A stretch of 63,934 nucleotides of DNA, the filler included, from Stramenopiles sp. TOSAG23-6 (Eukaryota): assembly GCA_900128565.1 (NCBI GenBank). It is 28 parts of 28 records of this genome, joined end to end, with 100 filler letters (N's around TTAATTAATTAA, not from the genome) between each part and the next. Parts side by side here need not be neighbours in the genome. Positions count along the whole stretch, not along the records: positions 25,269 to 27,455 come from LT638224.1; 27 more parts are not named here. One strand, given 5' to 3'. The notes beneath the pieces are model-generated. The model did not search any database. It had not been told where the DNA came from and saw nothing but the letters and a program-made list of their open reading frames with translations. Positions 2,447 through 62,581 of this stretch are shown here, piece after piece. The first letter of the stretch is position 1. Every line of letters starts with the position of its first letter. Position numbers and translations under genes: made by a program.

Positions 2447-3170
2447 GTCATTGGTGCCACGAATAGACCTCAAGAATTAGATGAAGCAGCTAGACGTCGT
2501 TTTGTGAAGCGGTTATATATAGCTTTGCCTGTAGGTTTGGATTTTTTTTTTTTTTTTTCATACGAAATTTTGTACCTAACGAAAAAAAATTTGGAAAAAA
2601 AATTTCAGTAAAAAAAAAAAAATATTCTTCACAATATATACTCAAGAAGCTAGAAGTGCATTAATTACTAGATTACTACAAAAAAACAGTTCAAATGTGT
2701 CTAAAAATGAGATTAAACATATTGTTCAAAAATCAAAAGGCTTCTCTGGCTCAGATCTCCATGCTTTATGCACAGAAGCTTCAATATACGTTTTTTTTAT
2801 ACGAAATTGTATACCTAACAAAAAACAAATTTTCAATTTTTTTTTTTCAATTTTTTTTTCAAATTTTTTTTAAATTTTTTTTTTTATAAAAATTTTGTAC
2901 CTAACAAAAAAAATTAATTTTTCAAAAAAAAGAAAAAACTATATTGTTGTACATTATTTGGGACCTATTCGAGATTTAATGACTGGATCTGATATAATGA
3001 CATCAGCAGCAAAAATGAGTGCTGATTCAGTGAGACCAATAAAAATGACTGATTTTGATACCGCATTCCGACAGGTTCGTGCAAGTGTCGCTCAACCAGA
3101 ACTTTTATCGTATATTAAATGGAATGAAGAATTCGGAAGTTTTGGTGAATCCAATGAAAAACAAGACTAA
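2447..3170 (+). CDS. Fidgetin/spastin-like AAA ATPase, C-terminal exons (2447-2530, 2640-~2785, ~2960-3170)
   Basis: Spliced translation [36 protein letters not shown]...[20 protein letters not shown]...WNEEFGS. Confidence 0.9.
2531..2639 (+). other. Family intron, GT..AT
   Basis: CCT|GTAGGT...TTTTGTACCTAAC...CAATATAT|ACT restores LP-TQEAR. Using the internal CAG at ~2608 would give an immediate TAA. Confidence 0.85.
2786..2959 (+). other. Family intron with AT start and two branch motifs (boundary ambiguous by 2 nt)
   Basis: AT|ATACGT...TATTT|G GGA (or 2784-2957, AT..AT) restores EAS(M/L)GPIRD. Confidence 0.7.
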
Positions 3171-5018: not shown

Positions 5019-6660
5019 ATGGTGTATTTTATACGTTTACCCGTTTCCATCCTTATGGGACGAAACAGCAGACGCTGCTTTTTTAGTAAACATTATGTAC
5101 GATCATTCATATCATATCTAGAACCAAACTCATATATGATAAATATATCGTCAAAGCCAATATTTCCATATCGAGTACAGTACATCCGTCCTTTTTCTGA
5201 GTATAAAGAGTCAACAAATACTAGTAGTAGGAATACGTCTCCAACATCTTTAACTGGCCCAAATAGTTTTCAATCAAATTCTACTCCTCCCACAGATGTT
5301 GATGTTGGTACAACAAATACAGTCAATACAACTACAAATACGAATCAAAACAATAAAAACAAATCAAAGAATTCTTCTTCTCGCGTTGACATTGTCAAAG
5401 CTCTTCGAGAAGTGTTAAAAGCAAAAGGCGATGTATGTTTTATTTTTTTTTTACAAAAAAATCGAATTTTTTTTTCATACGAAATTTTGTACCTAACAAA
5501 AAAATTAGATTTTTTTTGAAATATTTTTCTAAAAAACATGGAAAACTATTTCGCATTGATAGACATGATAGCATGTCGGAATATTTAGTAACTGATCCTG
5601 ACTTAGATACAATACCATCAGAGTCTGTAGAAAATCCGATAACAGGTAAAACAATAAAATGGTACAATATTAAAGATGTAAAAACACTTGTCGTTCGGCG
5701 ATGGGGATCGTTTGAAGCCATGTATGTTTTTATTTTTTTTTTTTTATTATGAATTTATATAATTTTTTTTATTTTTTTTCATAGTAAATATTGTACCTAA
5801 CAAAAAACAAAAAAAACAAAAAAAAATTGAAATATTGTTTTTCAATTTTGAATTTTTTTTTTTTCATAGTAAATTTTGTACCTAACGATTTTTTTTTTTT
5901 CGTAAAAAAAAAATATTTTTGTAAAATACATGGAACTTGAGAAAGAAAAACGTCGCAGTGCGTTTTGGAGTCAAAAAAAAAAGAAAATTCGGTTACAAAG
6001 AGAGGATAGTCAGCGTCAATATCAAAAATACCAAAATAAAGACAATACACAACCTTCGAAACAGAAGCATCGATATCGATCGTTGGGTCATGAAGAAAGC
6101 AAAAGTATCTTTTTTATTATGAAATTTTTTTTGTATGAATTTTTTTTTTTTTTTTTTATTATGAATTTTTTTTTGTATGAATTTTTTTTTGTATGAATTT
6201 TTTTTTTTAATGAATTTCAAATTTAATTTTTTTTTTTGAGTTTTTATTTGATAATAATAATATTTTTTTTTGTACCTAACAAAAGTGTATTTAAAAAATT
6301 TTGACATATTTTTTCATATATATCATATCCAAGCACTCGAAAAGGACAAACTAGAGTCTGGCAAGAAAGATTAGGTCATTTAAAAAAACAAAACCCTAAC
6401 CCTAATCATGAAAACCCTAACCCTAATCATGAAACATTCTTGGCAAATGATAATTTGAATAGTATAACAACTCATCCAAGTCGAAGTGATCGATTTGACC
6501 AAAAAATTAATAAACAACATAATTCAATTGATTCAAAATCAGTGGTTGAATTAGCAGTGAAAGGTAATGGAGCTGTTGCAATTATGAAATTTGGTGCATT
6601 TGTACATTTTAATCATGAAATTTTTTACCTACATTATTTTTCATACGAAATTTCGTACCT

Positions 6661-6960: not shown

Positions 6961-7515
6961 ACTGAAATAATAAAAACAAGTGACAAAACAAGTAAAATGA
7001 AAATTATTGTATACTGTACAGCTAAACTGTGTCTTCGAATAATATGATTCGATCGTCTTCGTGCATGAGTATGTTGATGCTTTTATGTATTGTAAGAAAA
7101 TATTTCATTTTTTTTTGATTTTTTTTTGTTAGGTACAAAATTTCGTATGAAAAAAAATTGAGCAAAAAAAAAATCTAGACATTTTTTTTGGTGACCACTT
7201 ACGATGATGTTTTTGTTCTGTTGTATTGACGTTTTGAGTCTTGTACGCTGTATTTGGAATTCCATTGCTTTGTTGTTTAGGTCTACTAGTAGACACAACG
7301 GGTGGCGTGTAAGCAGTAGGATCAGATTTGATAGTAGAAGAAGAAAACATATTTTCAGCATGCAGTGTTTTGAGCATTTCGTGTTTTTTTGTTTTTTTTA
7401 TCTTTTTCAAATGCGTCTTTTGAATGTTTTGTTTTTGAATAACTTCATGTCCAACTCCGTTGTCGACTGAACTGAAAAGAAACAAAGCAAATAAGAAGAA
7501 TGGAGTTTTGTTCAT
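6961..7515 (-). CDS. Signal-peptide/membrane protein of unknown function (partial), family intron at ~7085-7180
   Basis: Hydrophobic N-terminus MNKTPFFLFALFLFSS. Intron motif on the minus strand; phase unresolved. Confidence 0.45.
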
Positions 7516-9341: not shown

Positions 9342-11329
9342 TTATTTTTTGGAACTCAATACATTTTTAAAAAACTGAAAGTAAGTTGAGCTTAATACGG
9401 CATCAGAACAATTTACAGTAACTTTTGAGTCCCCTGTTTTGATATCTGAATCAATACTCAATAAAATTGAATCATTTGTATCAATCCGACATCCGGTAAA
9501 CATTGCTTTACCGCTACATAGAAAATCATCCTCAACTGGTAACAGAAATAAGTTAGCAGAGATGAGAATTTTTTGTACACAATTGTCCAAACCTAAAATC
9601 GATACATGACCTGAAGATTCTTGCATTCCCGCCATATGAACCTTAACTTTTTCAAATTCATCACGAGACATTGGAAGGGACCGTATTAGTTCCCCGATCG
9701 GAATTTTCATTTTTATTGGATAAATTCCTCGACTGCAAGAAATTGAAAATTTGACTGGCTTTTCTTTTCCTTTGAAATCTACAGGAATTCGTGTAGGGAA
9801 CATTACTTCTGGAAGTAATTTCGGAATTTCTTCAAACGTTCGAATTGATTTTTCATCTTCTACTTTAATCATTCGAATATTTTCAATGCTGTAGGGTTTG
9901 TTATTTTTAATATGAAACTCAACAATATTGAAATTGGTACCTAGAGGAGAAATTTCACGTAGAAAAACTGTTTCAATACTCAACCCATTTCCCATAACTT
10001 TGCTCAAGAGACAATGCTTTGTCAATAGATTATTAGAAATCGTATCTCCCGATTGTGTCGTTGTACCTTTCTTGACGATTTGTTCAGGACTCGAGAGAAT
10101 TTCACAAAGACCTGAATGCAAAATATGCTCATCTTCATTATCACCCTCAACTTCATCAAGTGGATCAAATGAGTCATTGTGTTTGATCGTTTCATGATTT
10201 TCTTCTTTTATCTTTGATGTATTACTATCAACATTGAAACTATCAAACATTTGCAAAAGATCATCCGAAGTGGATACATTTTTGGTATCTACATTTGCAT
10301 TAATACTTTTAGAGGGTTTCAACAGAGGAGATAATCCTGGAAGAAGTTTTTCAACTGGTTTTAAATTATTTCTATGCTTTTTATTCACTACGGTAGGTGT
10401 GTTTACATAACTACTAGTTTCAACAGTTGTGTCACTATCGCTATCACTGTTGCTGCTATTCGAATCATCATCATTAGAATCATCATCACTACTATCGCTA
10501 CTACTACTGCTATCACTATCAGAGCTACTACTACTACTACTACTACTACCATCATCATTATCATCATCATCATCATCATCAGATGATGATGATGATGATG
10601 AATAAAAACCATCAGCCAAACTTTTTACTTCTCTATTTGTTTTTTGTTTTTTTGATTTCTTTCGATTCGCTGAATTCGCGGCATCAAAGTCATCTGAATC
10701 CGAATCATTCAAATGAGTGGATTCTCTTACACTGGAGTCAAGAGGATCAAGGGTCCAATCGGGAAGTTTTTGATATCCAAAAGCCGCATGTTTTACACAA
10801 TGTGATAATGAACCTAGTATAAATTGTGTACGTTTTTGAGACATGGTTTCGTCTTTCGGACATTTTTTCGAAATATCTGTATCCATTTTATCATATTTAC
10901 TTGTAAAAAATATTCGTTTTGCGTAAGAAACTATATTAGCATCTTTCTCTTCACCAATACATATTGTTTCAAATAATTTTGCTCTGTCCCTTACGTCATA
11001 GTTTAAGTCATATTTTGCTAATTGTAAGATATACTTTAAAAGTAAATACAAATTATTATGTATTTTGGAAAAATATTTCAAAAAAAAAAACTCAAATTTG
11101 TTAGGTACAAAAAAAAATAAAATATACATCATTTGGATTTTTCATCTGAAGTTTTACAGCTAAATTTACAATTTGCATTTTGACTTCAGAATTTTCTCTC
11201 TGAAAACCAAGCGCAAGTTTTCGAAGAATATCTGGAGCTTCTACGCTGAAGATAGAGTAAAAATCTCTGACAATCCAAACGATAGATGCTCTTGCGGCTG
11301 GGACTTTGACAGAGTCCAATAGAGATACA
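9342..11329 (-). CDS. AP3B: AP-3 complex beta subunit, C-terminal part
   Basis: PAARASIVWIV, APDILRKLA, VKMQIVNLAVKL, YILQLAKYDLNYDVRDRA, acidic Ser/Asp hinge and ear domain. Confidence 0.9.
11058..11127 (-). other. Minimal 70-nt family intron, GT..AT
   Basis: GAT|GTATAT...TTTTGTACCTAAC...AAATACAT|AAT, in frame (NPND-NNLYLL). Confidence 0.85.
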
Positions 11330-20693: not shown

Positions 20694-22471
20694 TATATTG
20701 CACCTGAAAGCACATTACGAATATGATACGGCCATTCTGTCTCTTCGACAGCTATTTATTGTGAAAAATATTTTTTTTTTGGTTAAAAACAGTTGTTAGG
20801 TATGAAATTTTCATAGTAAAAACTTCATTCTCGATGAAAACGTACTTTAGCCAAGACAATTCTGTCGATGTTGATGGAGTAGATTGGAGGAGAGATCCAA
20901 ACTTTGATAGACTATTTCGCATCGCATGGATGTTGGCAATTCCTAAATACTTGATACTAGCATTTTTATAATTGCTATTACTTTCCACGCCACCACCATT
21001 TAAACCATTTGCATACGCCGCTGCTTTGGCTCGACAATCAGCAATTAGCAATTTATTTGATTTTCTATTTGACATTCTGACGGAGGAGAGCAAAAGCTCA
21101 TCTTCTCTATTACGATTTCCTCCAGCACCGACTACACCAAGACCTACCTTTGGTTGTGATGACCTCCACATTGTAGGTCCCTGTATTGTGAAATTCTTTT
21201 TTAAAAAGTAAAAAAAATTGGTTACTACAAAATTTGGTAAAAAAACAAAAACAAAAAAATATTGAAAGTCAAAACATACATTTGGCTGACCTGGGAAACA
21301 CCAAGAGAACGCAGGAATGCGTCCTTTTGAACGAAAACTTGCACATTTCCACATATATAGCGAAAAATATATCACAAAAAAAATCATTAGGTACAAAATG
21401 TTTTGGAAAAAAACAGTTGAAATGAATGATGAAAAAGTACATGGAAGCTTCAGAAAAATCACGCGGCTTGATTAATTGTTCGGGATATGTAGGTGTCATT
21501 CGATACCCATTATTACTAGTTGAAAATACGAACGGCGATGTTTGTGATGTGATTCCAAGACGATTATATTCTTGTACTGCATTGTACTGGTAGGGTAAGC
21601 CATCTGGCGAACTTTCAGTAGTAAGTTGACTAAAAAAACAAAAAGCAAGTTCAACTTTACTAGGAAAAGCCATTGTTTTCAATGTTTGAAGAGCTTTTTT
21701 ACGGGTTTCTTCGCATTTAAACCCAAATACAAGCGTGCGGAGATCTTTACATTTGACACAAATAAGGACTTTTCGCCCATTTTTTGTACTGTGTAATTCC
21801 AATTTTTGGATGCATCCCAAAGGAACGTCAAAATATTTTGGAGGGAAATCGTAGGATTCAGTAGGGAAAAAACGCAGTTGGTATGTAGTACACATCAACT
21901 CACCAGCAACCATTGGAGGAACACCTGGTTCACAACGCAATGCAGCACTAAAAAAATAACAATCTCCTACTTTCATTTCTATCAACAATTGTTCCCCCGG
22001 GAGAAAAGAATCACGGGCATTAAAACTACCCAGGGGCTTTGGCCGATTCCGCGGGAGACCGAGTGCCGATTTAGATCGTGGGCAAACACAAGAAGGGTCT
22101 ACAACATCTACTGCGACATTGTTTTTGTTGCGTTCCGTTGTTTGAGAAATAAGAGAACTAGCAGACACTACAGGTTGACTTCCGACAGGTTCATTTCTGG
22201 TAGTCTTCGTCCTTCCGTGTCTACCTTGGCTTTTAACGCGCTTCGATGCTTTATTGCTCGAATTTAATTTGCGGCCTGATAAATTAGTCTTTGGTGCCTC
22301 TGACATGGATAAAAATGGATTATTCACCAATTCATGATCAAAACTGGCACTGCGATTTATCGCCTTTTTTGCTTTTTCTTCTTTATCCTTTGCTAATTGT
22401 AGTTTTGCATCTTGCGCAGCAAACATTGAGAGTGGGTCGTTCATACTATGTAAGAAAATTCTTGAACTCAA
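20694..22471 (-). CDS. Myotubularin-related phosphatase with GRAM domain, 4 exons (partial)
   Basis: TPTYPEQL, ASFRSKGRIPA, WRSSQPKVG, IADCRAKAAAYAN, IANIHAMRNSL, W..HIRNVLSGA. Confidence 0.92.
20754..20845 (-). other. Family intron, GT..AT; an AG 2 nt downstream is out of frame
   Basis: AA|GTACGT...AATAAAT|A GCT restores SWLK-AVEETEW. Confidence 0.82.
21181..21279 (-). other. Family intron, canonical GT..AG variant
   Basis: AAT|GTATGT...CACAATACAG|GGA. Confidence 0.85.
21353..21440 (-). other. Family intron, GT..AT
   Basis: AT|GTACTT...CTATATAT|G TGG restores EASM-WKCASFRSKGR. Confidence 0.85.
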
Positions 22472-23429: not shown

Positions 23430-23481
23430 TTTATTTATTTGTTAAAGTCTCATTCTAAGAATAAACAACCCGAGATAATTA

Positions 23482-23841
23482 CTAATCATTGAATTTTATA
23501 CCCTGTGCTTCGAATTGACTTTTTGCGGCTAATATAGCTTCCGCTCTTTCCATCGAAAACTCGTCTATATTTTCTTGGACAGCATCTTCAAAAGTTGAGT
23601 GTGAAATAGTTTTTGCTTGATTCATCACAGGAATTTCTCCAGTTGCAAAAGCATTCAAACGACCTTCGAAAGCATTTTGCGCAGTTATAGCATCAGCTAG
23701 TTGCTGAGGAGTCATCAAATGGCCTGAGGAGCTTGAAACTTTCGGAGCACTCGTAATGGATTTCTTTAACTCTTCCTTTGACATGGGCGTGAAGTCATTT
23801 TTACTGCTCTTATTCTGAAGATGGACATTAGAACCAGTCAT
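23482..23841 (-). CDS. Small protein with an ARMC6 N-terminal-like motif
   Basis: ISHSTFEDAVQENIDEFSM...AKSQFEAQG resembles the ARMC6 N-terminal motif (recalled, not searched). Confidence 0.5.
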   Translation of the reverse strand: MTGSNVHLQNKSSKNDFTPMSKEELKKSITSAPKVSSSSGHLMTPQQLADAITAQNAFEGRLNAFATGEIPVMNQAKTISHSTFEDAVQENIDEFSMERAEAILAAKSQFEAQGIKFND

Positions 23842-24167
23842 GCTAAGCGATTCCCTACTTTTACTAGAGTAGAATGTACCACAAGTACTTGTGCAATATC
23901 TAGAGCTACACTAGCAGTAAAAATCTTGTTCTACCTAAAACTAAACTTCGAGCATGGTTTATGAGTTTGTTGACGACGACAGTCGCAATAATATTATCAT
24001 GACAGAAACAGTCAAAAAAGTTCACATTACCGGGTACGTACACTAAAAAAAATGGCCAGGTATTTCTTTTGCCAGTCATCTCGACCCAGTCATCCTTCTT
24101 TCCCTTGCGTAAAAAAGCGTATACTCTGTGAGATTTAGCTAGATCCCGAGTTCGCAATTACCCAAGA

Positions 24168-25130
24168 ATGATGATTTTCGACACCATTTTTTTCAGTAGA
24201 GCAGCTGTACAAGTGTACGCTGTAGTTGGAGTCATATGGATTGGTCAGTTTCTATTGAGTCTATTGCTCAACTTTCGTTTTTTCAGATTCTTATGTGGTG
24301 AACGTCGCGTAAATTTCCGAAAGTGTAAAGGTTGGGCTGTGGTGACAGGTGCTACTGATGGAATTGGCAAAGCACTTGCAGTGGAGCTTGCTCGTCGTGG
24401 CCTATCAATCGTATTAATATCTCGAACTCAGTCTCGTTTGGATGCTGCTGCTGCTGAGTGTCTTGCTGCAGGTCCAAAGGGAATAAAGACTAAAACAGTG
24501 CAGGTCGATTTTAGTCTCCAGAATGCGGGAATATATGAAAAGCTAGAAGAAGCTTTACAAGGGTTGAATATTTCTGTGCTCATTAACAACGTTGGTGTCT
24601 CCTATCCACATGCTCAATACTTATGTGAAGTAGATGATGCCGTCTTGGATTCTTTGAGCTCAGTAAATGTAAAGGCAATGATGCGTGTTTCAAAAATAGT
24701 TTTGAAGAACGATTTGATGAAAGCTGGTAGTGTGATAATAAACGTAGCTTCAGGTGCTGGTATAATTTCGAGTGATCCATTGTATGCCGGTTATGCAGGT
24801 TCTAAATCTTTTGTTGATGCGTTTTCTCGATCTCTTGCCGTTGAATTGCGACCAAGGAAAATGTACGTTTTCAAATTTGGAAGTTGAAATTTTTTTTTTG
24901 TACGAAATTTTGTACCTAACAAAAAACAATTCTAAAAATATTTTTTCACAATACATTGTCGTTCAGTGCCATTGCCCTCTTTTTGTTGTCTCTAAACTCG
25001 CAAAAATTCGCAAACCATCATTTTTTGTCCCCACTCCTGCAGATTATGCGACGGTGGCCCTCAATTCAGTGTATGAAGGAAAACGTGTAACAATTGTTCC
25101 TCATTGGCCACATCGATTGCAACTTTACAT
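24168..25130 (+). CDS. Very-long-chain 3-oxoacyl-CoA reductase / HSD17B12-like SDR (3' partial)
   Basis: WAVVTGATDGIGKA, LINNVGVSY, YAGSK. After the intron: IVVQCHCPLFVVSKLAKIRK. Confidence 0.9.
24863..24956 (+). other. Family intron, GT..AT
   Basis: AT|GTACGT...CAATACAT|T GTC gives RK-I-VVQ. Confidence 0.88.
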
Positions 25131-25328
25131 GTATGTTTTATTTTTTTTTCAAATTCGAATTTTTTTTCNNNNNNNNNNNNNNNNNNNNNNNNNNNNNNNN
25201 NNNNNNNNNNNNTTAATTAATTAANNNNNNNNNNNNNNNNNNNNNNNNNNNNNNNNNNNNNNNNNNNNAATTTTGTACCTAACAAATTTTTTATGATTTT
25301 TTTTTTGAAATATTTTTCCAAAATACAT

Positions 25329-27455
25329 GAAGCACACTTGAAACATTTGGAAATTCTATTAAAGCATCATTCACATGCACGTGAGATTATGCTTCATGGT
25401 GATTTAAATGGTGGAACGGCAATGTACATTATACTTAATTTTTTTTGTTTTTTTTTTGTATGCAAATTTTGTACCTAACCAAATATACATATATGTATTA
25501 AATATTTCTTTATAATACAGGACTCTTGCAATTAAGTATAATCAAGAAAATGTTGTGCAATTTTTACTTTCAAATAAAGCAGACATTTACTATCAAAATT
25601 CAAAAACTGGTATGTCGTTTGCAAAAGCAGCATTTCAGTTTGAATATCATTCTGCTGGTTATGCTGGTTTTGCAATAAGAATTTTAAAAGATGGAATACA
25701 ACGTGGAATGTATGATATTCATAAATTAATTTCACAGGATGTAAAAGTATTTTCGTTAATTCCAGATGAAAAGAAAACTGAGAAAATTATCAAAATGGCG
25801 CTTCAAAATGATGTTAACGTATTTACGTTAATTCCAGATGAAATGAAAACTGATGGTATTATCAAAATGGCGCTTCAAAATGAAATAAATGTATTTAGAT
25901 TTATTCCAAATGAAAAGAAAACTGATGATATTATCAAAATGGCGCTTCAAAATGATGGATATTTACTTGATTCTGTTCCTCGAGACAAATTAATAAGACA
26001 AAATCAGGAATATTTAAAACTTGCAATGGATAATCTATTACATAACAAAAAGTCATGGGAAATCAATAACTTATTACAAAAAGGTTTTTTTGGAAAGGAT
26101 TCAAATGGTTCAATGTCAATGAGTGGATTACACCCCAGCTATTACTCTCCTGTACTACCGCATGTAGATAAGCGTGACGTATGTTTTATTTGTTTTCAAT
26201 CGAATTTCGAATTTTTTTTTTTCGTACGAAATTTCATACCTAACAAATTTTACAAAAAAAAATATTTTTTTCACAATAGTTGAAACAATTTCTCAGTCAA
26301 ATGCCACAGCAAGTAAGAGACGATATCAATGCTACTCAAAGAATATGTCATGTGAAAACGATGTACGTTTTCATTTCAATTTCGAATTTATTTATATTTT
26401 TTTCGTACAAAATTTTGTACCTAACGAGTTTTTTTTTGAAATATTTTTTCGTAATCTATGGATAAAGATTATACTAGCATTATAAATGAGTTTTTCCCAG
26501 ATTTGATTCTGCATCAATATTCTGAGCAAGAATTGAATAATTTAATAATAAAAGGATATTCAATTGAAGCTATTGATACCGCCATACAACGATTCCCAAA
26601 CAATAATAAATCCAATCTACTTCCAGCGACGGATTTGCAAAATATTGAAGAATATGTACGTTTTCATTTCAATTTCGAATTTATTTATTTTTCGTACGAA
26701 ATTTCGTAGCTAATAATTTTTTTTTTTAAATATTTTTTCAAAAGACATTTAGCCGATGGGGGAGGTACGGATGATAGTGGCTTCGTCGATAAAGTTGATT
26801 CATCAGAAGATCAGCTGCACAATCCTCTTTTACATGTACGTTTTGTTTCAGATTTTATCAATTTAAAAAAAAAACATTGTATAATATTACCAATTTACCA
26901 ATTTAAAAAAAAAAATCACACCTACGCTCAAATCAAATCCAAAATTTTTATACTTTTTTATACCTAACATTTTAAAGATTTTAAAATTATTTTTTACAAC
27001 ACATGTGAATAAAGAAAATGGTAAAAACAAACGATGTGTTACGCTTACTGACCTTAGTACTGCGCAGAAGGCCAAAGAAGAAAAAGTTTTGTTTGGTGCT
27101 ACCGATGAGCAAATTCAATGGAAACAAAAACATTTTGAATTTGTAATGGAAAAATTTGAAAAAATGAAAATGGACTATCAGATACAACAACGTAGAAGAA
27201 TCCCTTCGGGGAATTATAAGATTGATAAAATTGAATATTGTGATAATGAAACATTGGAAAACAAATACAAAGCCTTTTCTTCTCGTATATATCAGCAAAA
27301 GAAGAACACGAATGAAATGTGGTTATTTCATGTACATTTTCATCATGAATGAATTTATTTAAATTATTTTTTTTTGATTTTTTTTTGTAGTAAATTTTGT
27401 ACCTAACAAAAAACATTTTTTTTTTTTTTTTTTCACAATACATGGAGGCCCCTTA
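25329..27455 (+). CDS. Ankyrin + DUF4116-like repeats + UBA-like + PARP-like catalytic domain protein, at least 7 exons (partial)
   Basis: GGTAMTLAIKYNQENVVQFLL, IPDEKKT..IIKMALQND repeats, KIDKIEYCDNETLENKY...NEMWLFH|GG. Confidence 0.7.
25424..25520 (+). other. Family intron, GT..AG variant
   Basis: AT|GTACAT...AATACAG|G ACT. Confidence 0.82.
26179..26279 (+). other. Family intron, GT..AG variant
   Basis: GAC|GTATGT...CACAATAG|TTG. Confidence 0.8.
26363..26459 (+). other. Family intron, GT..AT
   Basis: AT|GTACGT...AATCTAT|G GAT. Confidence 0.82.
26656..26748 (+). other. Family intron, GT..AT; an AG 4 nt downstream is out of frame
   Basis: TAT|GTACGT...AAGACAT|TTA GCC. Confidence 0.8.
26836..27004 (+). 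other. Family intron, GT..AT (long)
   Basis: CAT|GTACGT...ATACCTAAC...AACACAT|GTG. Confidence 0.8.
27332..27443 (+). other. Family intron, GT..AT, splitting the PARP LFHG motif
   Basis: TTT CAT|GTACAT...AATACAT|GGA. Confidence 0.88.
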
Positions 27456-27555
27456 NNNNNNNNNNNNNNNNNNNNNNNNNNNNNNNNNNNNNNNNNNNNT
27501 TAATTAATTAANNNNNNNNNNNNNNNNNNNNNNNNNNNNNNNNNNNNNNNNNNNN

Positions 27556-28217
27556 GCAGCTTCCACTTTAGCATTCAATGCGTTAACTCCCGCTTCGGCC
27601 TTAGCTTCCATGGCTTCCAGCTTCCAACAATATTGCTTTTTGCTTTTCGTTGTACCATTTTCACGCTGCAACGAGAGCACAACTGGAAAATCAACATGAA
27701 GTTTGAGTCCCAACTCAAAGTCAGCAAGACTTCGACTAATACGACGAATTGCGCGAAGTGCTGGAATGCGAATACTTGAACTAGAATCAAGGGCCGCTGT
27801 GCGTAATGCTATCAACAACTGCTCTCGTTTTTCATCTGGACAAGACCAAGCTCTTTGCTGACACTTTGTCACAAAATCTGCAAGTATTGCAGCTCTACTT
27901 GGAGTTTTCGATTGTCTTTCGATGCGTAGTTTTGGTGTACCCTCTTGAGTACTAGGATCTATTTCTTTATTAGAAGAGTCGAGTTCTTTACCAGGAGAAT
28001 AATGATAATTAGAGTTCTTTGGAAATTTACCACTACTAACTGGAGGTGCAAAATATGAAATGACGTTTGTGGTTGCGTCATCAGATAAACTATCTGCTTC
28101 TGGTAAGAGATTTTCGTCTGAAGTACTAACACAACGCAGACCCCTCAACCCCTTATTCCTAGACAATGGGCTAGCCCCTGGTGATATAGTAGCATTTCCA
28201 GGGCTTTGCTCATTCAT
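27556..28217 (-). CDS. RICTOR-like N-terminus (partial)
   Basis: IRIPALRAIRRI...LHVDFPVVLSLQRE resembles the Rictor N domain (recalled). Confidence 0.5.
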
Positions 28218-28514
28218 TTTGACCTTTAACGAGATGATGCACTAAATTATGATCTCCCTTCTTTTGTTTGGCCATTTTGTTTGATAACACGTCGACAAGC
28301 GTAGGTTTGTTTTTTTTTATAATATTTCGTGTATTATATACTAATTTACTAACTAGAAATTTTGTTATATTTTCACCAGCTGACATGCTACATGCTTGAC
28401 TGACGCCAGCTCAAAGGAACGTCAGCCAGTGAACGTATCGATTTGCTACTTACTTTTTTGTGTGCACTTCATAAGTTTATCATTTACTATATTTCGCTAA
28501 ACTTAAAGCTTTAA

Positions 28515-29578
28515 ATGTTCAACATGTTACTATATGCAGTATTACTCATTGCCGTGTACGTGGTCGAAGGAGGCAGAGAAGGTTTTCATGAAAGTCATGG
28601 AACGTGTGCGGGTTTGTTCAAGCACCATATAATGGAAGAAACTGGAGTTTGCTACAAAAAAATTAATCCCTTGTTGTCTCGTAATGACTGCCCAAACGGT
28701 AACCCCGGTTGTGACTGCGGTGGATATGACTTCACAAAGGGATCCGTTTTAAATTTTGAGGAAACAGATACAGAATGTTGCTCGGCGTTGTTGGATATAC
28801 AGGAGGTATGTTTCTGTCCATGTTGTAGTAAGTTGGAGAGATATCAGAAACCAGCCACGCTTGCATATATTGCGCTGTGCAAAGGACAAACTACTGCGAG
28901 AGAAGCCGCATTGAAAACTGAAGTGGAAGCTGTGGCAGCAAGGGAAGCCGCATTGAAAACTGAAGTGGAAGCTGCGGCAGCAAGGGAAGCCGCCGCATTG
29001 GAAGCTAATTTCGAAGCGGAAGCTGCCGCATTGAAAGCTAAGAAAGATTTGGAAGATATGAAAAATAAACGAGAAGCTCACAAAGTGCAAGTACATGCAG
29101 CAAAAATAATTCAAAAAGAATGGCGTGCGAGAGCTGCGAAGAAAGATCAAGATCGCAAAAACACAGAAGAGAAGGACGGATTTTTCTCATCAAAACGATT
29201 GATATTATATGCTATTATTGGAGGAGCTTTACTTTTTGTGCTTGTTGTATTTATTCTCTGCTGGTGCCGACGGAATAAAAATGTTGAGAAAAGGAAGTTA
29301 ACTATTAAGGAAGGAAATGTATGTTTTATTTTTTTTCAAATTCGAATTTTTGTTTCGTACGAAATTTTGTACCTAACGAATGTTTTTTCAAATATTTTTC
29401 CAAAATACATGCGTCGAGAGTCGTCCATCGAAAACATCACATGGAACCACAGGTAATACAAAAACCAGTGAAGAACTTAAACTGGTTTAAGTTTGGGTTC
29501 CTAAAAACACGAGAAACACCTGCGAATGGCGTTGTAAATGGCGGTAACAGTATTAGTGATAAATGTATACCAGTGTAA
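28515..29578 (+). CDS. Type I membrane protein: Cys-rich ectodomain, AAREAALK repeats, TM; GT..AT intron at 29319-29410
   Basis: Signal peptide and TM LILYAIIGGALLFVLVVFILCW. AAT|intron|GCG joins in frame. Confidence 0.7.
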
Positions 29579-31019: not shown

Positions 31020-31959
31020 ATGTTCTCGCGCCAGGCTATTTTAAGAAGTAATGCTAATATTTTTAAGCGACTATATTCTGTGAAAGCATTAAAAAAGACT
31101 CCATTACATAGTTTGCATATTTCTATGAAAGCATTCATGACAGGCTTTGGCGGTTGGGACATGCCACTTTATTATGAGGATGGAATAATGAAGGAGCACG
31201 TTCACTGCCGTACTGAAGCTGGGCTTTTCGATGTGTCTCATATGTTGGGAATAAAAATCACTGGATCTGATCGTGTATTATTTGCTGAAAAATTTCTCCC
31301 CGCAAATGTTGCTGAGCTTGCAGATGGGCATGGTTGCCTGACAAATATTCCTAACTCTGAGGGCGGACTCATTGATGACTGTATCATTACAAACGCCGGT
31401 GATCATCTTTTTCTTGTAATAAACGCTGGACATGAAGAAAAAGATGTTCCACACATGCATAAGATATTAGATAGTTTTGATGGAGATGCTCATTTTGAGT
31501 TACAAGAAGGAAAAGGCATTCTTATACGTTGAATCTAAAAAAAAAAAAAAAAAAAAAAAAAATCCTAAAAAGCAGTTTGTACCTAATGTTTTTTTTACTA
31601 TTTTTTTATTTTCACAATACATGCACTTCAAGGCCCTAAAGCGACTTCTGTATTAGAAAGACATACTTCCAATGTTGACTTTAGTACGTTTGGATTCATG
31701 ACAGGTCGTTCAATGTCAGTGTACGTTTTTATTTGAATTTCAAATTTATATTTTTTTTTTTGGTTTTCATACAAAATTTTGTACCTAACAAAAAAAATCT
31801 AGACAATATTTTTTCATCTATATGAATGGCACTGAATGTTTTGTGACCAGAAGTGGCTATACAGGAGAAGATGGATATGAAATTTCTGTTGCTGGGGATC
31901 ATACCGAAGCTTTAGCAAAAACATTACTCGGAGAACCTGAAGTAAAACCAATTGGACTT
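31020..31959 (+). CDS. AMT: Glycine cleavage system T protein (aminomethyltransferase), mitochondrial, 3 exons (partial)
   Basis: KTPLH, FGGWDMPLYY, GLFDVSHM, GIL|ALQGPKA, VTRSGYTGEDGYEI. Confidence 0.95.
31524..31622 (+). other. Family intron, AT..AT
   Basis: CTT|ATACGT...GTACCTAAT...CAATACAT|GCA restores GIL-ALQGP. Confidence 0.88.
31721..31823 (+). other. Family intron, GT..AT
   Basis: GT|GTACGT...TCTATAT|G AAT gives MSV-NGTECFVTRSGY. Confidence 0.85.
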
Positions 31960-32129: not shown

Positions 32130-32966
32130 CTTTATACAGTAGTAGTACTGCGCTGGCGATTTTTTGTACGAAATTGTATACCTAACAAAATTTTGAAATT
32201 TTTTGAATTTTTTGTACAATATATGACGATCCTTTAGTGATTTTATCGGACAGTATATTCAACGAAAACATGGTACATTAAAATCCATTATTGATGGATC
32301 TATTTTAGGTACTCATTATGGGTTGGAGTATAGTACCATTGGACAGAGCGCGCGTATTGGGGGTGCAAAAGAGAGATGGGTTGTGGTACGTTTTCATCAT
32401 GAAATTATAGTAAAAAGAATAATATTTTTTTTTTCGTAGTACATTTCGTACCTAACAAATTTTAAAAAAAAATGAAATTGTTTTTTTCACAATACATGTA
32501 GGAAAAGAAAAAAAAGATAATATTGTTTTATGTGCTCCTGGTTTAAAACATCCTTCTATTTATTTTCGTACTATTTATTTACAAAAGTCAGAAATCTGTT
32601 GGATATCAAAAAATGGACCTCCAAGTGATTTGTGTATGTTTTATTTTTTTTCAAANTTNAANTTTTTTTTTTTNGNTTTTCGTACGAAATTTTGTACCTA
32701 ACAAAAAAATTTAGATTTTTTTCAAATTCGATTTTTTTTCAAATTCGATTTTTTTTTTTTGGTTTTTTATAAAAATTTTGTACCTAACAAAAAAATTTAG
32801 ATTTTTTTAAATATTTTTCCAAAATACATACCATAAAAATGGAATGACTGTTTTTTATAGAATTCGTCATGGCCAAAAATTAGGTAAATGTCGTATTCTA
32901 TTGGAAAAAAAGAATTCATCAGATATTCAATACACAAAATATACACAAAATATACAATCAAATACA

Positions 32967-33011
<45 letters not shown>

Positions 33012-33152: not shown

Positions 33153-33196
<44 letters not shown>

Positions 33197-45862: not shown

Positions 45863-47075
45863 GATGTGTTGTCTTTTAATACACACATTGGAATCTATCA
45901 TAGTCGTGTTTTGGTTTTGTGACAAGAAGAAAGGAAATACAAAACTTTCATATCATCTTTATTTTGAAACAATATTAACTTGGACTTCGCTTTTAGCTGA
46001 ATTATCTGTCCAAATAATACATAGCCCAAGTAAAAGTGTATATTGTATGACATTTTTACCCATAACTAGAGGTTTTCGAGTGCTTCGTTTACTCACAGTA
46101 TCGTCATACTTTGATAGAATGTGGAGGGCAATTGTTGTTGCAGTACCAGTTCTATTTGCTCTTTCAGCAGTTTGGTTAGGTCTTACATATTCATACGTAA
46201 TTGTTGGTATGGAACTATTTGGAAAAATTGGTGATAAAGAAGCACTTGCAGGAGAAGTTGATGATTATGCTCCTTTTGGTAGGAATATAGGTAGACTTAG
46301 AATAAATAAAATGCTTCATCAAATTGAAAGAAATAAAAATCCTGCAGCAGATGCATTTGTAAATCACCAACATGTACGTTTTTGTCATTAATTTCCAATT
46401 TTGTTTTTTCGTACGAAATTTCGTACCTAACAAAAAAACAACCAAAAATTTTTTCACAATACATGCACTATTTACTGGTTTTGCATCAACATTAGGTCTA
46501 CTTTGGCAATTGACAGTATCGAATAATTGGCAAGATATGTACGTTTTCACTATGAATTTGAATTCTTTTTACGACGAAAATTTTTTACCTCACGAATTTC
46601 AAATTTCAAATATTTCTTAGGACACATAATGCATCCCAACATTGAGCGTACGAGTCAATACTATTCCTGGTATTTTACAACTTATTATTGGTTATGCCAT
46701 ATGTTCCTATTAGATGTTATTATTGGTGTTGCGATTGATGCTGTACAAAATTTAGATGATGAAGATAATAAAGTGAAAGATAAAGTCAATGAGGGAGGTA
46801 ATCGCCATTCTAGCATATCTAGTTTAGATTACAATACTTCTGGTCTTAGTTGGAATTCACTTTTAGGTTTTTCTGAAGACGTCACAATAGAGAATGTTCT
46901 CAAAGAGGACCACAAAATGGTTGATGGAATGACAGCAAAGTTGACTGCTCAATCAAGAGAAATAGCATACGATACATTTTCAGATCAAACGTCTAAAGCG
47001 GCAAAACTTTGGAAAAAAGCCATCACTGCAGCCATGTCACCTAAAAAGTTTCCTCAACTTCACCAAAAAGACTAA
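45863..47075 (+). CDS. Two-pore/voltage-gated cation channel C-terminus; GT..AT introns at 46374-46464 and 46539-46627
   Basis: S4-like RGFRVLRLL, YVIVGMELFG, pore LTVSNNWQD-I-M, FLLDVIIGVAIDA. Confidence 0.8.
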
Positions 47076-50288: not shown

Positions 50289-50507
50289 NNNNNNNNNNNN
50301 NNNNNNNNNNNNNNNNNNNNNNNNNNNNNNNNTTAATTAATTAANNNNNNNNNNNNNNNNNNNNNNNNNNNNNNNNNNNNNNNNNNNNAAAAAAAGTGTA
50401 TGATCAAAACGAAAAATGTAGTTTGAAAAAAAAAAAATTATATTTTTTTTGTTAGGTACAAAATTTCGTATGAAAAAATAAATCTAAAATTCATGATAAA
50501 AACGTAC

Positions 50508-51505
50508 AAGGTCACCGTCTTTCCTTGCCTTGGATAATGATGAATGAATGGTCTCATCGTCAATGGATTGAGTGAAAATAACACTAGATAAATTTGTGTT
50601 ATTCAATGACATATTTTCGAGTTGGTTTGGGTTATTATTATTTTTCTCTTGTAACTGATTATTTAAATCTCGATCTTTTCTCCAATTTGAAAGTTTTTCC
50701 ATTGTTTCGTCGATATTAGCAATAATGACGTCATGTTTAGCACAAGCAGCTTCTAAAGACTCGAGTTGTTTTAGACGAACACATGTGTTGTGAAAAAATA
50801 TTTTTAAAATTGTACATTGGTCAAAAAAAATCATTATGTACGAAATTTCGTACAATTGTTTTTTTTTTTTTAAACATACCATCTTCAATGACACGAGAAG
50901 AAGATGTCAAAGTATTAGTTGCTTGTAAGAGAGCATTGTTGCTTGATGAATGTTGATACGTTAGCTCATCGACTTGATCCACTGCTTCAGATGCTGTAGC
51001 CATCGCACGGGCATGTCGTGATACAGCAGAATTTGAGTGAGGCGGAGATATCTCTGTTTGAGTCATGGATGAAGACTCTTCTTTGCCTTTTTCTATCGGA
51101 GAATTCATTTTCAAGAAAGTTGTAAATTCCACAACAATGATGGAATCAATTAGTCTTCTGCTTGCCAGTATTTTTACTTGTAGTGCTTGTGGATGCCCTC
51201 AACAATTTCCAATTAGAGCGGACACAGTAAATATAGGGCAAAGAAACAACAAATGGAGCAAATATAATCCAGTAACCTTCAACTCCAGTCACAGTAGAGA
51301 AAGTCTGAAGAATCAATAAAGTAGATCCAAGGATACTACAAATTATGTACACGCACAGTATTAAATCGTAATTTACGCCGACTGCCGGTTCAAAGATATT
51401 CATTTCTACAATGCGTAGATGTTTGGTCCGACGCGAACACAGACAAAAAAGCAAAGAGAAAAAGACAGAAAAAAGACAAAAAAGCACAAAAAAGAGAGTG
51501 ACCAC
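50508..51505 (-). CDS. Membrane/coiled-coil protein of unknown function; GT..AT intron at 50783-50879
   Basis: G|GTATGT...AACACAT|GT gives EDG-VRLKQ. Possible frame break near 51140. Confidence 0.45.
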
Positions 51506-53147: not shown

Positions 53148-54393
53148 ATGGGATTCGGATTAGTTGCCAAATGTATTGCACTTCTTGCAGTCATTGTAGG
53201 TGTTGTAATTTTCGTCCTTCCTCCAGATGTGCTGAAAGGAATATCATCCAATGTTGTTCTCAATAATTGGCAGCTTCAATTGACCGTAACCGGGTTCTGT
53301 TTTTCGGGGCTTCCGCAAAGATTACTCCAACCTGAACGCGGCCTTGATATTGGCGGTGATTTCGATTTTGCTACTGATGGTGATCTTGAAAACGACGATT
53401 ACAATAAGGCATCGATTTATTCACTTTTGTATGGAATGTATGCGAATGCTGGTACAGTCATCTCTGACTTGGGTGTTCCTTACCAATTCACGTTTAATAC
53501 TTGGGGAATCGCACCAAGTCCGTACCCTGTGAATGATCCACAACGCCACGGCAAAGCGGCATACACAGGTCTCGTTCGTTTCCCACAAGTTCTGGAGTAC
53601 TTAGAAAATGTAACGGATTCTCCGGTCATGGTGGAAATCGGCAGTGGAACTGGAGCCGGAGCTAACCTCATTACTCGTGAACTTATTCCTAAGGCTACAT
53701 ATTATGCCATTGACATGCAAGCTGCTGGTGTAGCCACGTGTAAAAAACTTCATGGTAACGAATCAAATCCAAATCTTAAGTGTGTGCATGCTCCAGAAGG
53801 TATTGGAGTGGGTGGTAATCGTGTAAAATATCCTGACGGTAGCTTAATGCCTGACCATTCCGTTGATTTCGTGATTATCTGTGAAACTCATATTGCAGAT
53901 GTCGAAATTGGAGTAGAAGAAAAAGCAATATTCGCTGAAATTCACCGTATTTTGAAACCAGGAGGATATTTCTTATGGGGTAATGCTTTACCTACGCGAG
54001 TTTGGAATGCTGCCGTTCCTTATCTCAACGATAATGGTTTTAGTCGTCAAATGAGTTTAAATCACACTGCCGGTGCCATTACTGCGCGAGACGAAGATGA
54101 AAACCGTGTAAACGCGTACTGCGATTCCCTTATGGGTGGATTCCCCGTCTTCAAGGCTCCATTTGGTTGGGGTGACGAGTGCCATCTTGTCACTGATCGA
54201 CTCATTAAAAACTTTTACAGACATCCTGGTACTGTACGTTTTCATCATCAATATCAAATCTATTTATTTTTTTATAAAAATTTTGTACCTAACAAAAACA
54301 ATTTGAAAATATTTTCCTAAAATACATGCGTTGTATTTGAAGATGGTTACTGGTTTTGATTCATATATGCATGAAGCATACCAAGCAAATTGA
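53148..54393 (+). CDS. SAM-dependent methyltransferase with N-terminal anchor; GT..AT intron at 54234-54327
   Basis: VEIGSGTGAG, FAEIHRILKPGG. ACT|intron|GCG gives RHPGT-ALYLKMVTGFDSY. Confidence 0.85.
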
Positions 54394-55935: not shown

Positions 55936-56878
55936 ATGTTTTCATATCGATTAGTGAGTTGGGCTAGAGCTGCAGGCATAGCAAACGTTTGCCGAAGAGG
56001 TTTAGCCCAATCTGCTGCGGGTAAAGTGGTTGTTGGGTCTCAAAGTATAAAGCCACGCCGTAGACGACAACTTAAGGCTGCTCTTTCATTGGTACGTACA
56101 ATTTGCCATATTTTGTGTTTTATAGAATTTGCTTTGTATGATGCATTGCTTTTGTTATTCTGTGTTATATCATTTTCACTATGCTCTCCACACTTGATGA
56201 CATTATTTATATCAATATGATACAAACGACATCTTTTTAACAAAGAATACTCTTTATGATATCATTATTTCCATAGACTGATGCAGCTGCTGATAGAGTA
56301 AAAGAATTATTAGAAGGAAAAGATGATGTACGTTTTCATTATGACTTTTCAAATTTATTTTTTTCGTAGGGAATTTTCTATCTAACAAATTTCATTTTTT
56401 TGTAATATTTTCCCAAAATATATGTTATTGGAGTTCGTATTGGAGTCAAAACTAGGGGATGCAATGGACTTTCATACACAATGAATTATGCAAAAGAAAC
56501 AGAAAAGTTTGAGGAGGTAGTAAAAGAAAAAGGCGTGACTGTTGTAATAGAATCAAAAGCGCTAATGCATGTATGTTTTACTTTTTTTCGATTTTGAATT
56601 TATTTTTTTTCGTACGAAATTTTGTACCTAACATTTTTTTTTGAGTAAAAAAAAAATATTTTTACAAAATACATGTACGTTTTTCATAAGGAATTAATTT
56701 TTTTTTTAGTAAAAAGAGAAGTTTTTTTTAACAAAAAAATTAATTTGATATATTTTTCACAACACATGTCGTAGGTACAACAATGGACTACGCAACAGAT
56801 GAAATATCTGCAGAGTTTGTGTTTCATAATCCAAATGCTAAAGGAGCTTGTGGTTGTGGAGAAAGTTTTAATACATAA
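55936..56878 (+). CDS. ISCA1: Iron-sulfur cluster assembly protein IscA/Isa1, mitochondrial, complete (exons 55936-56091, 56277-56327, 56424-56570, 56768-56878)
   Basis: AALSL|TDAAADRVKELL...|VIGVRIGVKTRGCNGLSY...KALMH|VVGTTMDY...NPNAKGACGCGESF. Confidence 0.95.
56092..56276 (+). other. Ordinary non-family GT..AG intron
   Basis: TTG|GTACGT...CCATAG|ACT, without the family motifs. Confidence 0.88.
56328..56423 (+). other. Family intron, GT..AT
   Basis: GAT|GTACGT...AAATATAT|GTT. Confidence 0.88.
56571..56767 (+). other. Two back-to-back family introns (56571-56674 and 56675-56767) with no exon between them
   Basis: CAT|GTATGT...AATACAT|GTACGT...AACACAT|GTC. Confidence 0.85.
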
Positions 56879-61653: not shown

Positions 61654-61875
61654 TTTTTTTTNNNNNNNNNNNNNNNNNNNNNNNNNNNNNNNNNNNNNNN
61701 NNNNNTTAATTAATTAANNNNNNNNNNNNNNNNNNNNNNNNNNNNNNNNNNNNNNNNNNNNTGGTGAAATAAACCGACCGATAATATATTGTGAAAAATA
61801 TTTTTGTTTTGTAAAAACTCGTTAGGTACAAAATTTACCATTAAAAAAGAATCAAAATTTATGATGAAAACGTAC

Positions 61876-62581
61876 ATACACTGCATTAATTTTGATGGGA
61901 TAAGCATCTTGATAGATTTTTGAAATTCTCTTTTCATGGATGTTGCAAAAATATTTCAAAAAAAATCTAAAAAAATTGTTAGGTACAAAATTTCCTATAA
62001 AAAAAAAAATTCGAAATTGAAAAAAAAATAAAACATACATCCAATATTTCCCAAGCCTCTTTAAAATCTTCATACGCCAAATGATACTCACCTAGACTAC
62101 AGTATGCGCGTCCCCGACTATAAAAAAGAAGATGAACGGGGCAATCAAAATGCTCAAAGCTACCTTTTTGTACCCAATGTAAAGCATTTGTGAACTCTGC
62201 AACGGCAGATCGAGGCCGATTCATATGTTTTTTGGCAGCATTATAACAATTCCAAAATTCCATTATCATTTTATTTTGATGGCAAGTGTTACTATTTCCC
62301 AAAAATAGCTCAGACTCTGAAGAGACTGCCTGTATATCTAAGTGCTTATCAATAGAGTTGGAACATTCCCTTTCCAGAGAAACAAATTCATCATGTATTG
62401 AAGCTTCATCTTTTTCAGTTATCGTGATATTATCTTGATATACGTTTTGCTGGGAAGCAACTACAGCTTTTGCGCTTTGTACAGCAAATTCTGTCATTGC
62501 TTGCAAAACTAAACGCTCTTGTAGTAACGCAAGACGCCGAAGGTGGTCAACCATATCGGCATCAGCTTCCAATAGTGTCAT
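61876..62581 (-). CDS. TPR-containing protein (partial); GT..AT intron at 61936-62038
   Basis: LFYSRGRAYCSLGEYHLAYEDFKEA. Confidence 0.7.

Follow-up and report, generated by a model that had tools for sequence, protein, structure and literature searches.

Why do two introns of a single gene begin with exactly the same 33 nucleotides? This question is raised by a 63,934-nt stretch of DNA of Stramenopiles sp. TOSAG23-6 (GenBank assembly GCA_900128565.1), referred to here as the window, in which the introns at positions 26363-26459 and 26656-26748 lie on one scaffold (25269-27455; LT638224.1). A first-pass annotation of the window had attributed the pair to introner-like propagation. It was found that both introns belong to a family of look-alike introns present in unrelated genes, most of which end with AT instead of AG. 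I propose, with a probability of roughly 0.6, that they are two copies of a non-autonomous, insertion-derived (introner-like) intron family. The uniform non-AG acceptor is the most striking property of this family. The copies are old enough to differ by about 15% or more, and present activity is not demonstrated.

Introns with GT-AT ends

The window is AT-rich eukaryotic DNA (GC about 30-37%) and consists of a chain of about 32 N-free scaffold pieces, most of them about 2.2 kb long. The pieces are unrelated to each other, are sorted by descending length (from 2204 to 2173 nt), and are separated by 100-nt linkers of N with TTAATTAATTAA (e.g., 25169-25268). Since the window is made of joined scaffolds, adjacency across a linker is biologically meaningless, and "neighbouring" is a valid word only within one scaffold, as for the introns at 26363 and 26656. 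The scaffold 32130-34315 forms a perfect palindrome, with two arms of 1093 nt that are 100% complementary and have no spacer between them; it is probably a product of amplification or an assembly chimera. The copies on this scaffold were counted once.

An nhmmer profile was built from 14 clear copies and used with a cut-off of E<0.01. It gave 53 non-overlapping matches in about 60 kb, four of which are the mirror copies of the palindromic scaffold, and both ends were fixed for 34 complete copies. All but one of these (33/34) start with GT. At the family-aligned last position, 31 copies have AT and three have AG; two of the three end with ACAG (G in place of T) and the third with ATAG. Ordinary splice ends had been assumed in the first-pass annotation and the AT ends had gone unremarked, which does not hold for this family. 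Among the host genes of the copies are those for a myotubularin, an ion channel, an IscA, a GCV_T protein, a short-chain dehydrogenase, AP-3 beta, and a methyltransferase.

The GT-AT register was assessed by excision. When six introns are excised from the scaffold 25269-27455, one open reading frame (ORF) of 486 aa spans the whole scaffold; two of the six introns end with AG (25424-25520 and 26179-26279) and four with AT (26363-26459, 26656-26748, 26836-27004, and 27332-27443). Excision elsewhere gave ORFs of 504 aa for the myotubularin (three junctions), 354 aa for the ion channel (two junctions), 102 aa for the IscA (three junctions), and 208 aa for a further gene (two junctions). The frame test favours the aligned register for 23 AT-ending and three AG-ending copies. 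It was undecidable or odd for six copies (2786, 6191, 6602, 8744, 41380, and 50507), and the downstream exon was too short at 27332 and 61875. The spliced IscA product (...KDD|VIGVRIGV... and ...ALMH|VVGTTMDY...) is gapless when compared with the relatives P0002-P0005. The Pfam myotubularin profile runs continuously over the junctions (positions 3-68, then 73-91, then 96-200), and so does the GCV_T profile (140-172, then 176-222). Thus, the DNA-level evidence for exact removal, as GT-AT or GT-AG, consists of fitting frames at 26 junctions and of homology or Pfam continuity at six.

AG dinucleotides are present near the AT ends. Of 26 copies, 13 have an AG between the branch and the end, at a distance of up to 31 nt from the branch; downstream of the terminal AT, 15 of 23 copies have an AG no more than 15 nt away. 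The copy 20754-20845 has an AG only 2 nt beyond its AT, and the use of this AG is excluded by the frame. In the intron 26656-26748, the branch motif has decayed to GTAGCTAAT and an AG 4 nt before the end is unused. An AT-AC register was also considered and rejected, since AT precedes GT in only 20 of the 34 copies, while the GT (33/34) and the terminal AT (31/34) are uniform.

The IscA exon has its nearest database protein in P0001 (98% identical; EukProt source "GSMAST32.ASY1.ANO1.980.1 assembled CDS"), and the best match carrying an organism name is from the oomycete Lagenidium (71%). These protein matches suggest that the DNA is from a marine MAST-3-like stramenopile. In P0001, which is the public gene model of the near-identical organism, residues are missing at both GT-AT junctions, and the model reads into the conventional intron 56092-56277. 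The errors of P0001 over the region corresponding to 55934-56875 indicate that gene finders using canonical sites mis-annotate these genes. Ciliate-type DNA elimination and non-standard genetic codes were set aside because the ORFs are long under the standard code.

A few copies depart from the common ends. In three of them (8744-8872, 2786-2954, and 8987) the first aligned base is A and not G (ATATGT or ATACGT). For the copy at 8744, the frame favours a removal of 127 nt, either as GT...AC from 2 nt upstream or as AT...AT. Such A-starting copies might serve as a natural experiment on how the first and last bases of an intron pair. On the minus strand of 59880-60277 there are two further family-like introns ending with ACAG, one of about 188 nt with an internal tandem duplication. 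Counting this pair and 61199-61319, there are about six AG-ending family copies in all.

Anatomy and 5′ variants of the unit

The unit has a fixed order of parts: GTAYGTTTT, a variable body, a T run, CRTACGAAATTTYGTACCTAAC, an A/T-rich spacer, and ATATTTTT(C)ACAATACAT. The variable body begins with ATTTTTTTT... or CATCATGAATTT... and often contains TTTCGAATTT. The information content is highest in three blocks, namely the donor, the branch block, and the tail. Motifs of the unit are 17 to 45 times more frequent in the window than in shuffled sequences: GTAYGTTTT occurs 42 times (2.5 expected), the branch motif TACCTAAC 48 times (1.07 expected), and TTCGTACGAAATTT with at most two mismatches 34 times (1.8 expected). 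The branch A is located 34-70 nt from the 3′ end (median 41.5 nt). RNAalifold analysis of 20 copies gave five pairs between the donor and the branch block and none between the intron ends (-0.12 kcal/mol), and no Rfam family was matched.

Two variants of the 5′ end were found in the window, GTATGTTTTATTTTT with eight matches and GTACGTTTTCAT with nine, one of each being a mirror copy in the palindromic scaffold. The cross-combination GTACGTTTTATTT has no match in the window, and GTATGTTTTCAT has a single match, which lies in the start codon region of the IscA gene outside any element. Linkage between 5′ position 4 and positions 10-12 is complete (6/0 versus 0/12, p 5e-5). Both variants do occur across the window, as had been stated, but that wording is misleading for a set of about 32 joined scaffolds.

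The copies are found in all three phases. Among 27 sites, 16 are in phase 0, three in phase 1, and eight in phase 2, and many phase-0 sites come after NAT codons. The AT-flanked sites are distributed over the phases as 13/0/6, versus 8.2/5.5/5.4 expected from the AT sites of coding sequence (p 0.015), which is a mild deficit of phase 1. Copies are also located inside conserved domains, in line with the conserved motifs noticed at first sight; the Pfam domains concerned are Myotub-related, Ion_trans, Fe-S_biosyn, GCV_T, and adh_short. At all 27 sites with a decidable host frame, the copy is intronic and in the sense orientation.

The introns at 26363 and 26656

Are the two introns of the scaffold 25269-27455 exceptionally similar? 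Their first 33 nt are indeed identical. The 33-nt string is present exactly twice in the window, had no match in 100 shuffles, and is absent elsewhere in the window even when three mismatches are allowed. When the 34 complete copies were compared with each other (561 pairs), no other pair had so long a 5′ prefix in common, the runner-up being 22 nt. On the other hand, an exact identity of at least 33 nt anywhere in the element is found in seven of the 561 pairs and is hence not unusual among the family members.

Over the full length, the two introns are 83.5% identical, and the description of them as near-identical copies has to be withdrawn. This value ranks second among 465 pairs; the top pair (85.1%) is located on different scaffolds. 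The similarity is unevenly distributed. When 378 pairs were ranked by parts, the pair was first in the 5′ part, 210th in the core, and 24th in the 3′ part. The identity is 33/33 at the 5′ end, 82% in the core, which is average for the family, and 76% in the 3′ part. The core has private changes in each copy, including CTAAC to CTAAT in 26656, and a derived 5′ block is common to this pair alone. The exon flanks of the two introns are unrelated, which argues against a segmental duplication. The two introns are probably the closest kin in this sample, by way of either one variant source or a partial gene conversion, and the pair is not young.

For this pair only, the 33-nt identity might be ascribed to gene conversion between introns 293 nt apart rather than to copying and insertion. 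In favour of this stands the drop from 33/33 at the 5′ end to 82% in the core (rank 210 of 378), which is otherwise the most conserved part, and to 76% in the 3′ part. However, the 3′ part is still within the top 6% (rank 24 of 378), so that the kinship is not limited to the 5′ block, the exon flanks are unrelated, and same-scaffold pairs generally have no extra likeness, which speaks against frequent local conversion. Taken together, conversion appears rather unlikely.

Is local propagation a rule in this family? The 28 same-scaffold pairs have a mean identity of 0.650, compared with 0.665 for the 437 other pairs (permutation p 0.76). Thus, copies on the same scaffold are no more alike than others. 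The chance of finding one same-scaffold pair among the top two is about 12% (from 28/465).

The gene stretch that carries the two introns gave no Pfam or PDB match, and protein searches with its exons gave no match. A PARP-like domain at the end of this gene was considered and then dropped, as it had no Pfam or PDB match.

Possible signatures of insertion

The dinucleotide AT stands immediately before the GT in 20 of the 34 copies, compared with 9.5% of dinucleotides in 23.5 kb of coding sequence (six-fold, p 1e-12). As read from the flanks, the rebuilt empty site is often (C/G)AT|G. In the IscA gene, two units (56571-56674 and 56675-56767) are bracketed by three ATs, and both must be removed to yield the conserved IscA sequence. 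This is what would be given by a second insertion into the AT beside the first unit. There are also three compound copies with an internal duplication (5722-5931, 32634-32829, and about 60090-60277). Furthermore, of the 62 scaffold ends, 15 are no more than 40 nt away from a family match, while the matches cover 6.9% of the bases. This concentration fits assembly breaks at a repeat. The copy at 50507 gives the sole hint of a TT/TT repeat, which depends on 24 nt of downstream frame.

Public sequence data

Fourteen public runs match part of 20001-30000. The scaffold 25269-27455 was compared, at an identity of at least 90%, with four seawater runs from three studies (RNA runs X6 and X8, DNA runs X3 and X4). 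The element parts of the scaffold matched 4384 and 1536 contig pieces in the DNA runs and 668 and 16 in the RNA runs, these pieces having unlike flanks. These numbers indicate that the family is abundant in the sea. Apparent "joints" in the seawater runs turned out to be other copies mapping to two places. The polyA-selected RNA run is the one with 16 element pieces, versus 668 in the other RNA run of similar size; this difference could reflect removal from mature mRNA or merely the abundance of the organism, and it was not taken as evidence of splicing.

Among the JGI metagenome contigs, one contig (L001) has the sole exact match of the core. Its copy is 104 nt long, is of the GT...AT type, lies in phase 1, and has ACAT on both sides; its removal gives a 225-aa ORF. 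The element pattern had no match in viral contigs or in prokaryote genomes. The IscA relatives P0002 and P0003 (78% identical) are encoded by unbroken ORFs on contigs of 791 and 2611 nt, which would be intron-free genes only if these contigs represent DNA. In a literature search, no publication that deals with introns of this sort in MAST lineages was found. The excerpted text of a single-cell stramenopile genome paper (PMC5778133) mentions introns solely in its methods, and the word "intron" is absent from the Incisomonas paper (PMC12614181).

Origin of the family

How might these introns have arisen? In the preferred reading, a unit of about 90-110 nt brings its own signals: GTAYGTTTT as the donor, the long branch block TTTTCRTACGAAATTTYGTACCTAAC, a tract rich in T, and the 3′ tail ATATTTTTCACAATAC-AT. 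The unit sits in the sense strand of unrelated genes wherever this could be decided, mostly with an exonic AT immediately before it and frequently with (C/G)AT|G as its context. Its removal would extend from the GT as far as the terminal AT, which stands about 42 nt downstream of the branch A, with the AGs before and after this point being ignored, and would restore the coding sequence exactly. The units may have arrived through DNA insertions duplicating the AT, and the major spliceosome may be the machinery that removes them. The copies at 26363 and 26656 would then stem from one variant source copy, would have been inserted separately 293 nt apart, and would have acquired private changes afterwards. 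A bolder version, in which a free-living marine stramenopile-like protist has GT-AT element introns by the thousands that are cut by the major spliceosome at a 3′ AT fixed by their own tail (T-tract plus CACAATAC-AT, about 42 nt beyond the branch), with AGs in the vicinity being skipped, and that are still mobile, with the pair at 26363 and 26656 being a local re-insertion, seems somewhat doubtful.

Several observations weigh against the insertion-derived reading. The terminal inverted repeats, as read from the alignment, are only about 4 nt long (GTAY/RTAC). Of the 14 copies that have no upstream AT, 13 nevertheless have AT at the aligned end and one has AG, and thus the direct repeat is not seen to co-vary in the window. 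A Pfam search of 43 ORFs of at least 150 aa revealed no transposase domain, on scaffolds of 2.2 kb that are too small for a long element. Every decidable copy is intronic and in the sense orientation, which is also expected of spread at the RNA level. The conservation is concentrated in three blocks, all of which are possibly signals, and the intron 26836-27004 has kept the three blocks around an unrelated body. The donor variant predicts the 3′ tail only weakly (p 0.086 and 0.053), the identity of the rest of the element is 0.678 within and 0.656 between variants (p 0.125), and the comparison of elements without the first 45 nt gave p 0.10. In all four seawater runs, the exon bins of the scaffold 25269-27455 were covered hardly or not at all, and neither RNA joints nor empty sites were obtained from these runs. 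A search of metagenome contigs for the orthologous locus of the myotubularin exon gave 382 pattern matches, none of which was confirmed. Finally, the highest identity between any two copies is 85.1%.

These points also set limits to the earlier claims. The two donor subfamilies stand as a genuine dimorphism that concerns roughly the first 20 nt; as markers of whole-element lineages they were not significant. Of the introner-like propagation, what remains is a family of look-alike introns in unrelated genes with signatures of insertion. Recent or ongoing spread is not supported, the best pair being 85.1% and the pair at 26363 and 26656 83.5% identical.

The same strand and position at all 27 decidable sites would follow readily if the introns had spread at the RNA level, that is, if excised introns had reverse-spliced into other transcripts at AT|G-like sites and had then been copied to DNA, the terminal AT being the intron's own. 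A 3′ AT that is constant (31/34), beside an upstream AT present in 20/34 copies and not co-varying with it in the window, would fit as well, as would the lack of any transposase or clear inverted repeat among the features seen. But no reverse transcriptase was seen among the window ORFs either, and selection alone can purge antisense or non-spliced copies from a gene-dense genome. Moreover, the abutting IscA pair with one common AT is predicted by repeated insertion at a duplicated AT. RNA-level spread is thus considered improbable. Could the family instead consist of ordinary introns, vertically inherited and never mobile, which converged because the spliceosome demands a long donor, a branch block, and a non-AG tail? 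The information peaks in three blocks, the unrelated body of 26836-27004, the absence of any pair above 85.1% identity, and the failure to find polymorphism or an autonomous element in the data examined would all suit this view. However, the conventional GT-AG intron 56092-56277 of the IscA gene, which also hosts family copies, has no family match, no TACCTAAC, and none of the blocks, indicating that the spliceosome does not generally need them. Therefore, the similarity goes beyond minimal splice signals, although 26836-27004 shares the blocks only. Convergence would not account for the linked variants in the variable 5′ body, the derived block common to the pair at 26363 and 26656, the six-fold enrichment of AT before GT, the abutting units with no exon between them, the compound copies, and the tendency of assembly breaks to coincide with copies. 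Vertical inheritance of this kind is quite improbable. An artefact of single-cell amplification or assembly might be suspected from the chain of short scaffolds, the perfect palindrome, and a copy at 595 that is truncated against unrelated sequence, but it is extremely improbable: the copies differ from each other and lie at frame-preserving places in different conserved genes, and look-alike pieces are present in runs of three other studies and in the contig L001.

Comparison with known intron systems

The donor of U12-type introns is of the RTATCCTT type, their branch motif is 10-20 nt away from the 3′ end, and they have reportedly expanded in Physarum. The family resembles them in having long rigid donor and branch motifs and in that non-AG 3′ ends are tolerated, and its branch motif TACCTAAC is intermediate between the U2-type and U12-type consensus sequences. 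However, the family has GTAYGTTTT as its donor and a median spacing of 41.5 nt between the branch and the 3′ end; thus, it is not of the U12 type.

Introners of Micromonas pusilla and other eukaryotes, as described in excerpts of a review (PMC11282704), of Gozashti et al. (PMC9860276), and of PMC12130899, are likewise many look-alike short introns in unrelated genes. They carry their own donor and occur in aquatic hosts, as is also the case here, and they have a short direct repeat at the exon-intron borders of which one copy is removed by excision, as may also hold for the AT of the present family. According to the review, clear target duplications or inverted repeats are lacking in some introners, and Micromonas IE1 has co-opted its 3′ AG from the target duplication. 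The present family differs in that it ends with AT and not AG, that its 2-nt repeat does not co-vary in the window, that its inverted termini are about 4 nt, that its copies are at most 85.1% alike, and that no presence/absence evidence or link to a transposase was obtained. The 3′ sites accepted in the excerpted methods of PMC12130899 are AG and AC. Thus, annotation-based surveys of that kind would tend to miss a GT-AT family.

The non-canonical introners of Amoebophrya, in the excerpted account of Farhat et al. (PMC7789003), are similar in being repeated non-GT-AG introns of a marine protist, with short direct repeats over the borders and with standard gene finders failing on them. According to the same text, they differ in having no dominant end dinucleotides, inverted repeats of 8-20 nt that pair the intron ends, and an apparent lack of U1. 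The family studied here has a strong U1-type donor (GTAYGT), a uniform AT end, and no pairing of the ends (RNAalifold, -0.12 kcal/mol). The end pairing that marks structured non-conventional introns of the euglenid or Amoebophrya type was therefore not found. The introns of Fritillaria derived from miniature inverted-repeat transposable elements (MITEs), in the excerpts of PMC11282704 and PMC13326754, are also transposon-like, have 3′ ends including AT, and coexist with rare canonical introns, and their 3′ site is formed relative to an exonic repeat. Their commonest ends are AG-AC and AG-AT, so that their donor is non-canonical too, whereas the donor is canonical and the acceptor alone is deviant in the present family. 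The host of the Fritillaria introns is an animal, in contrast to the stramenopile-like protist studied here.

Implications

The recognition of AG at the 3′ end is among the most constant rules of splicing. Abundant and uniform AT-ending introns beside conventional GT-AG introns in the same genes would allow this rule to be dissected. An acceptor choice uncoupled from AG, with a canonical donor and branch, would, if true, be a natural system for this purpose. Introners would be extended to a non-AG form that is filtered out by annotation-based surveys. Since P0001 loses conserved residues at GT-AT junctions, many genes are likely to be affected by such damage in the predicted proteomes of this lineage. 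The pair at 26363 and 26656 and the abutting pair in the IscA gene would provide concrete cases of insertion sites for the theory of intron gain.

Other features of the window

The copies and related introns are listed in Table 1.

Table 1. Positions and properties of the family copies and of the introns compared with them.
Feature	Position	Strand	Properties
Intron 1 of the 33-nt pair	26363..26459	+	97 nt, GT...AT, phase 2, GTACGTTTTCAT 5′ variant, AT before GT
Intron 2 of the 33-nt pair	26656..26748	+	93 nt, GT...AT, phase 0, same 33-nt 5′ block
Neighbouring copy	26179..26279	+	101 nt, GT...AG, phase 0, GTATGTTTTATTT 5′ variant
Family copy	25424..25520	+	97 nt, ends ACAG (G for aligned T), phase 2
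GT...AT intron	26836..27004	+	169 nt; family 5′ end, branch motif, and 3′ tail; unrelated body; no nhmmer match at E<0.01
Family copy, GTACAT...ACAT	27332..27443	+	112 nt, phase 0; 12 nt of exon left before scaffold end
3′ part of copy	25269..25328	+	cut by scaffold start; its 5′ part (25131-25168) ends the preceding scaffold
Family copy, GTATGT variant	56571..56674	+	104 nt, GT...AT; directly abuts 56675-56767; junction gapless versus P0002-P0005
Family copy, GTACGT variant	56675..56767	+	93 nt, GT...AT; zero-length exon before it
Family copy, IscA-type gene	56328..56423	+	96 nt, GT...AT, phase 0
Conventional intron, same IscA gene	56092..56277	+	about 186 nt, GT...AG, without family motifs; orthologues continue across
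Family copy, myotubularin gene	21353..21440	-	88 nt, GT...AT, phase 2
Family copy, myotubularin gene	21181..21279	-	99 nt, GT...ACAG, phase 0
Family copy, myotubularin gene scaffold	20754..20845	-	92 nt, GT...AAAT, phase 2
Best-scoring copy, Ion_trans gene	46374..46464	+	91 nt, GT...AT, phase 0, ACAT on both sides
Family copy, pore region of Ion_trans gene	46539..46627	+	89 nt, GT...AT, phase 2
Family copy, GCV_T gene	31721..31823	+	103 nt, GT...AT, phase 2, no AT before GT
Family copy, short-chain dehydrogenase gene	24863..24956	+	94 nt, GT...AT, phase 2
Family copy, GTATGTTTTATTTT variant	29319..29410	+	92 nt, GT...AT, phase 0
Family copy, GTATGT variant	5433..5539	+	107 nt, GT...AT, phase 0
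Compound copy	5722..5931	+	210 nt, body and branch module duplicated internally, GT...AT, phase 2
Compound copy	32634..32829	+	196 nt, internal duplication, GT...AT, phase 1
Family copy	32386..32497	+	112 nt, GT...AT, phase 0; mirror 33948-34059 is the assembly palindrome
Family copy, methyltransferase gene	54234..54327	+	94 nt, GT...AT, phase 0, CT before GT
Family copy, GTATGT variant	61936..62038	-	103 nt, GT...AT, phase 0; 208-aa ORF
Family copy, GTACGT variant	61784..61875	-	92 nt, GT...AT; 21 nt of exon left before gap
Family copy	50783..50879	-	97 nt, GT...AT, phase 1, TG before GT
Family copy	50416..50507	-	upstream frame fits an end 2 nt further (TT; TT also before GT); 24 nt of exon before gap
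Family copy, GTAGGT 5′ end	2531..2639	+	109 nt, GT...AT, phase 0
Family copy, GTAAGT 5′ end	7085..7202	-	118 nt, GT...AT, phase 1
Short derivative, AP-3 beta gene	11058..11127	-	70 nt without middle, GT...AT, phase 0

The ORFs of the window match AP-3 beta, two myotubularins, IFT122, GET4, Serinc, GCV_T, UEV, IscA, and others. The two myotubularin paralogues have different structures over the same domain; the scaffold 43630-45786 has profile positions 25-288 in a single exon, while 20694-22881 has three family introns.

At 595-640, the 5′ 43-46 nt of a GTATGT-variant copy are followed directly by unrelated, GC-richer sequence. The reading frames are compatible with the removal of a stretch whose length is 1 mod 3, such as 43 nt, or 79 nt with AT at the end. 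The copy may have been truncated or rearranged, or the sequence may be chimeric.

Short telomere-like repeats (CCCTAA/TTAGGG) are located inside scaffolds at about 6390-6440 and 30430-30445, and at about 2260-2310 of the contig L001. One of them lies within an open frame.

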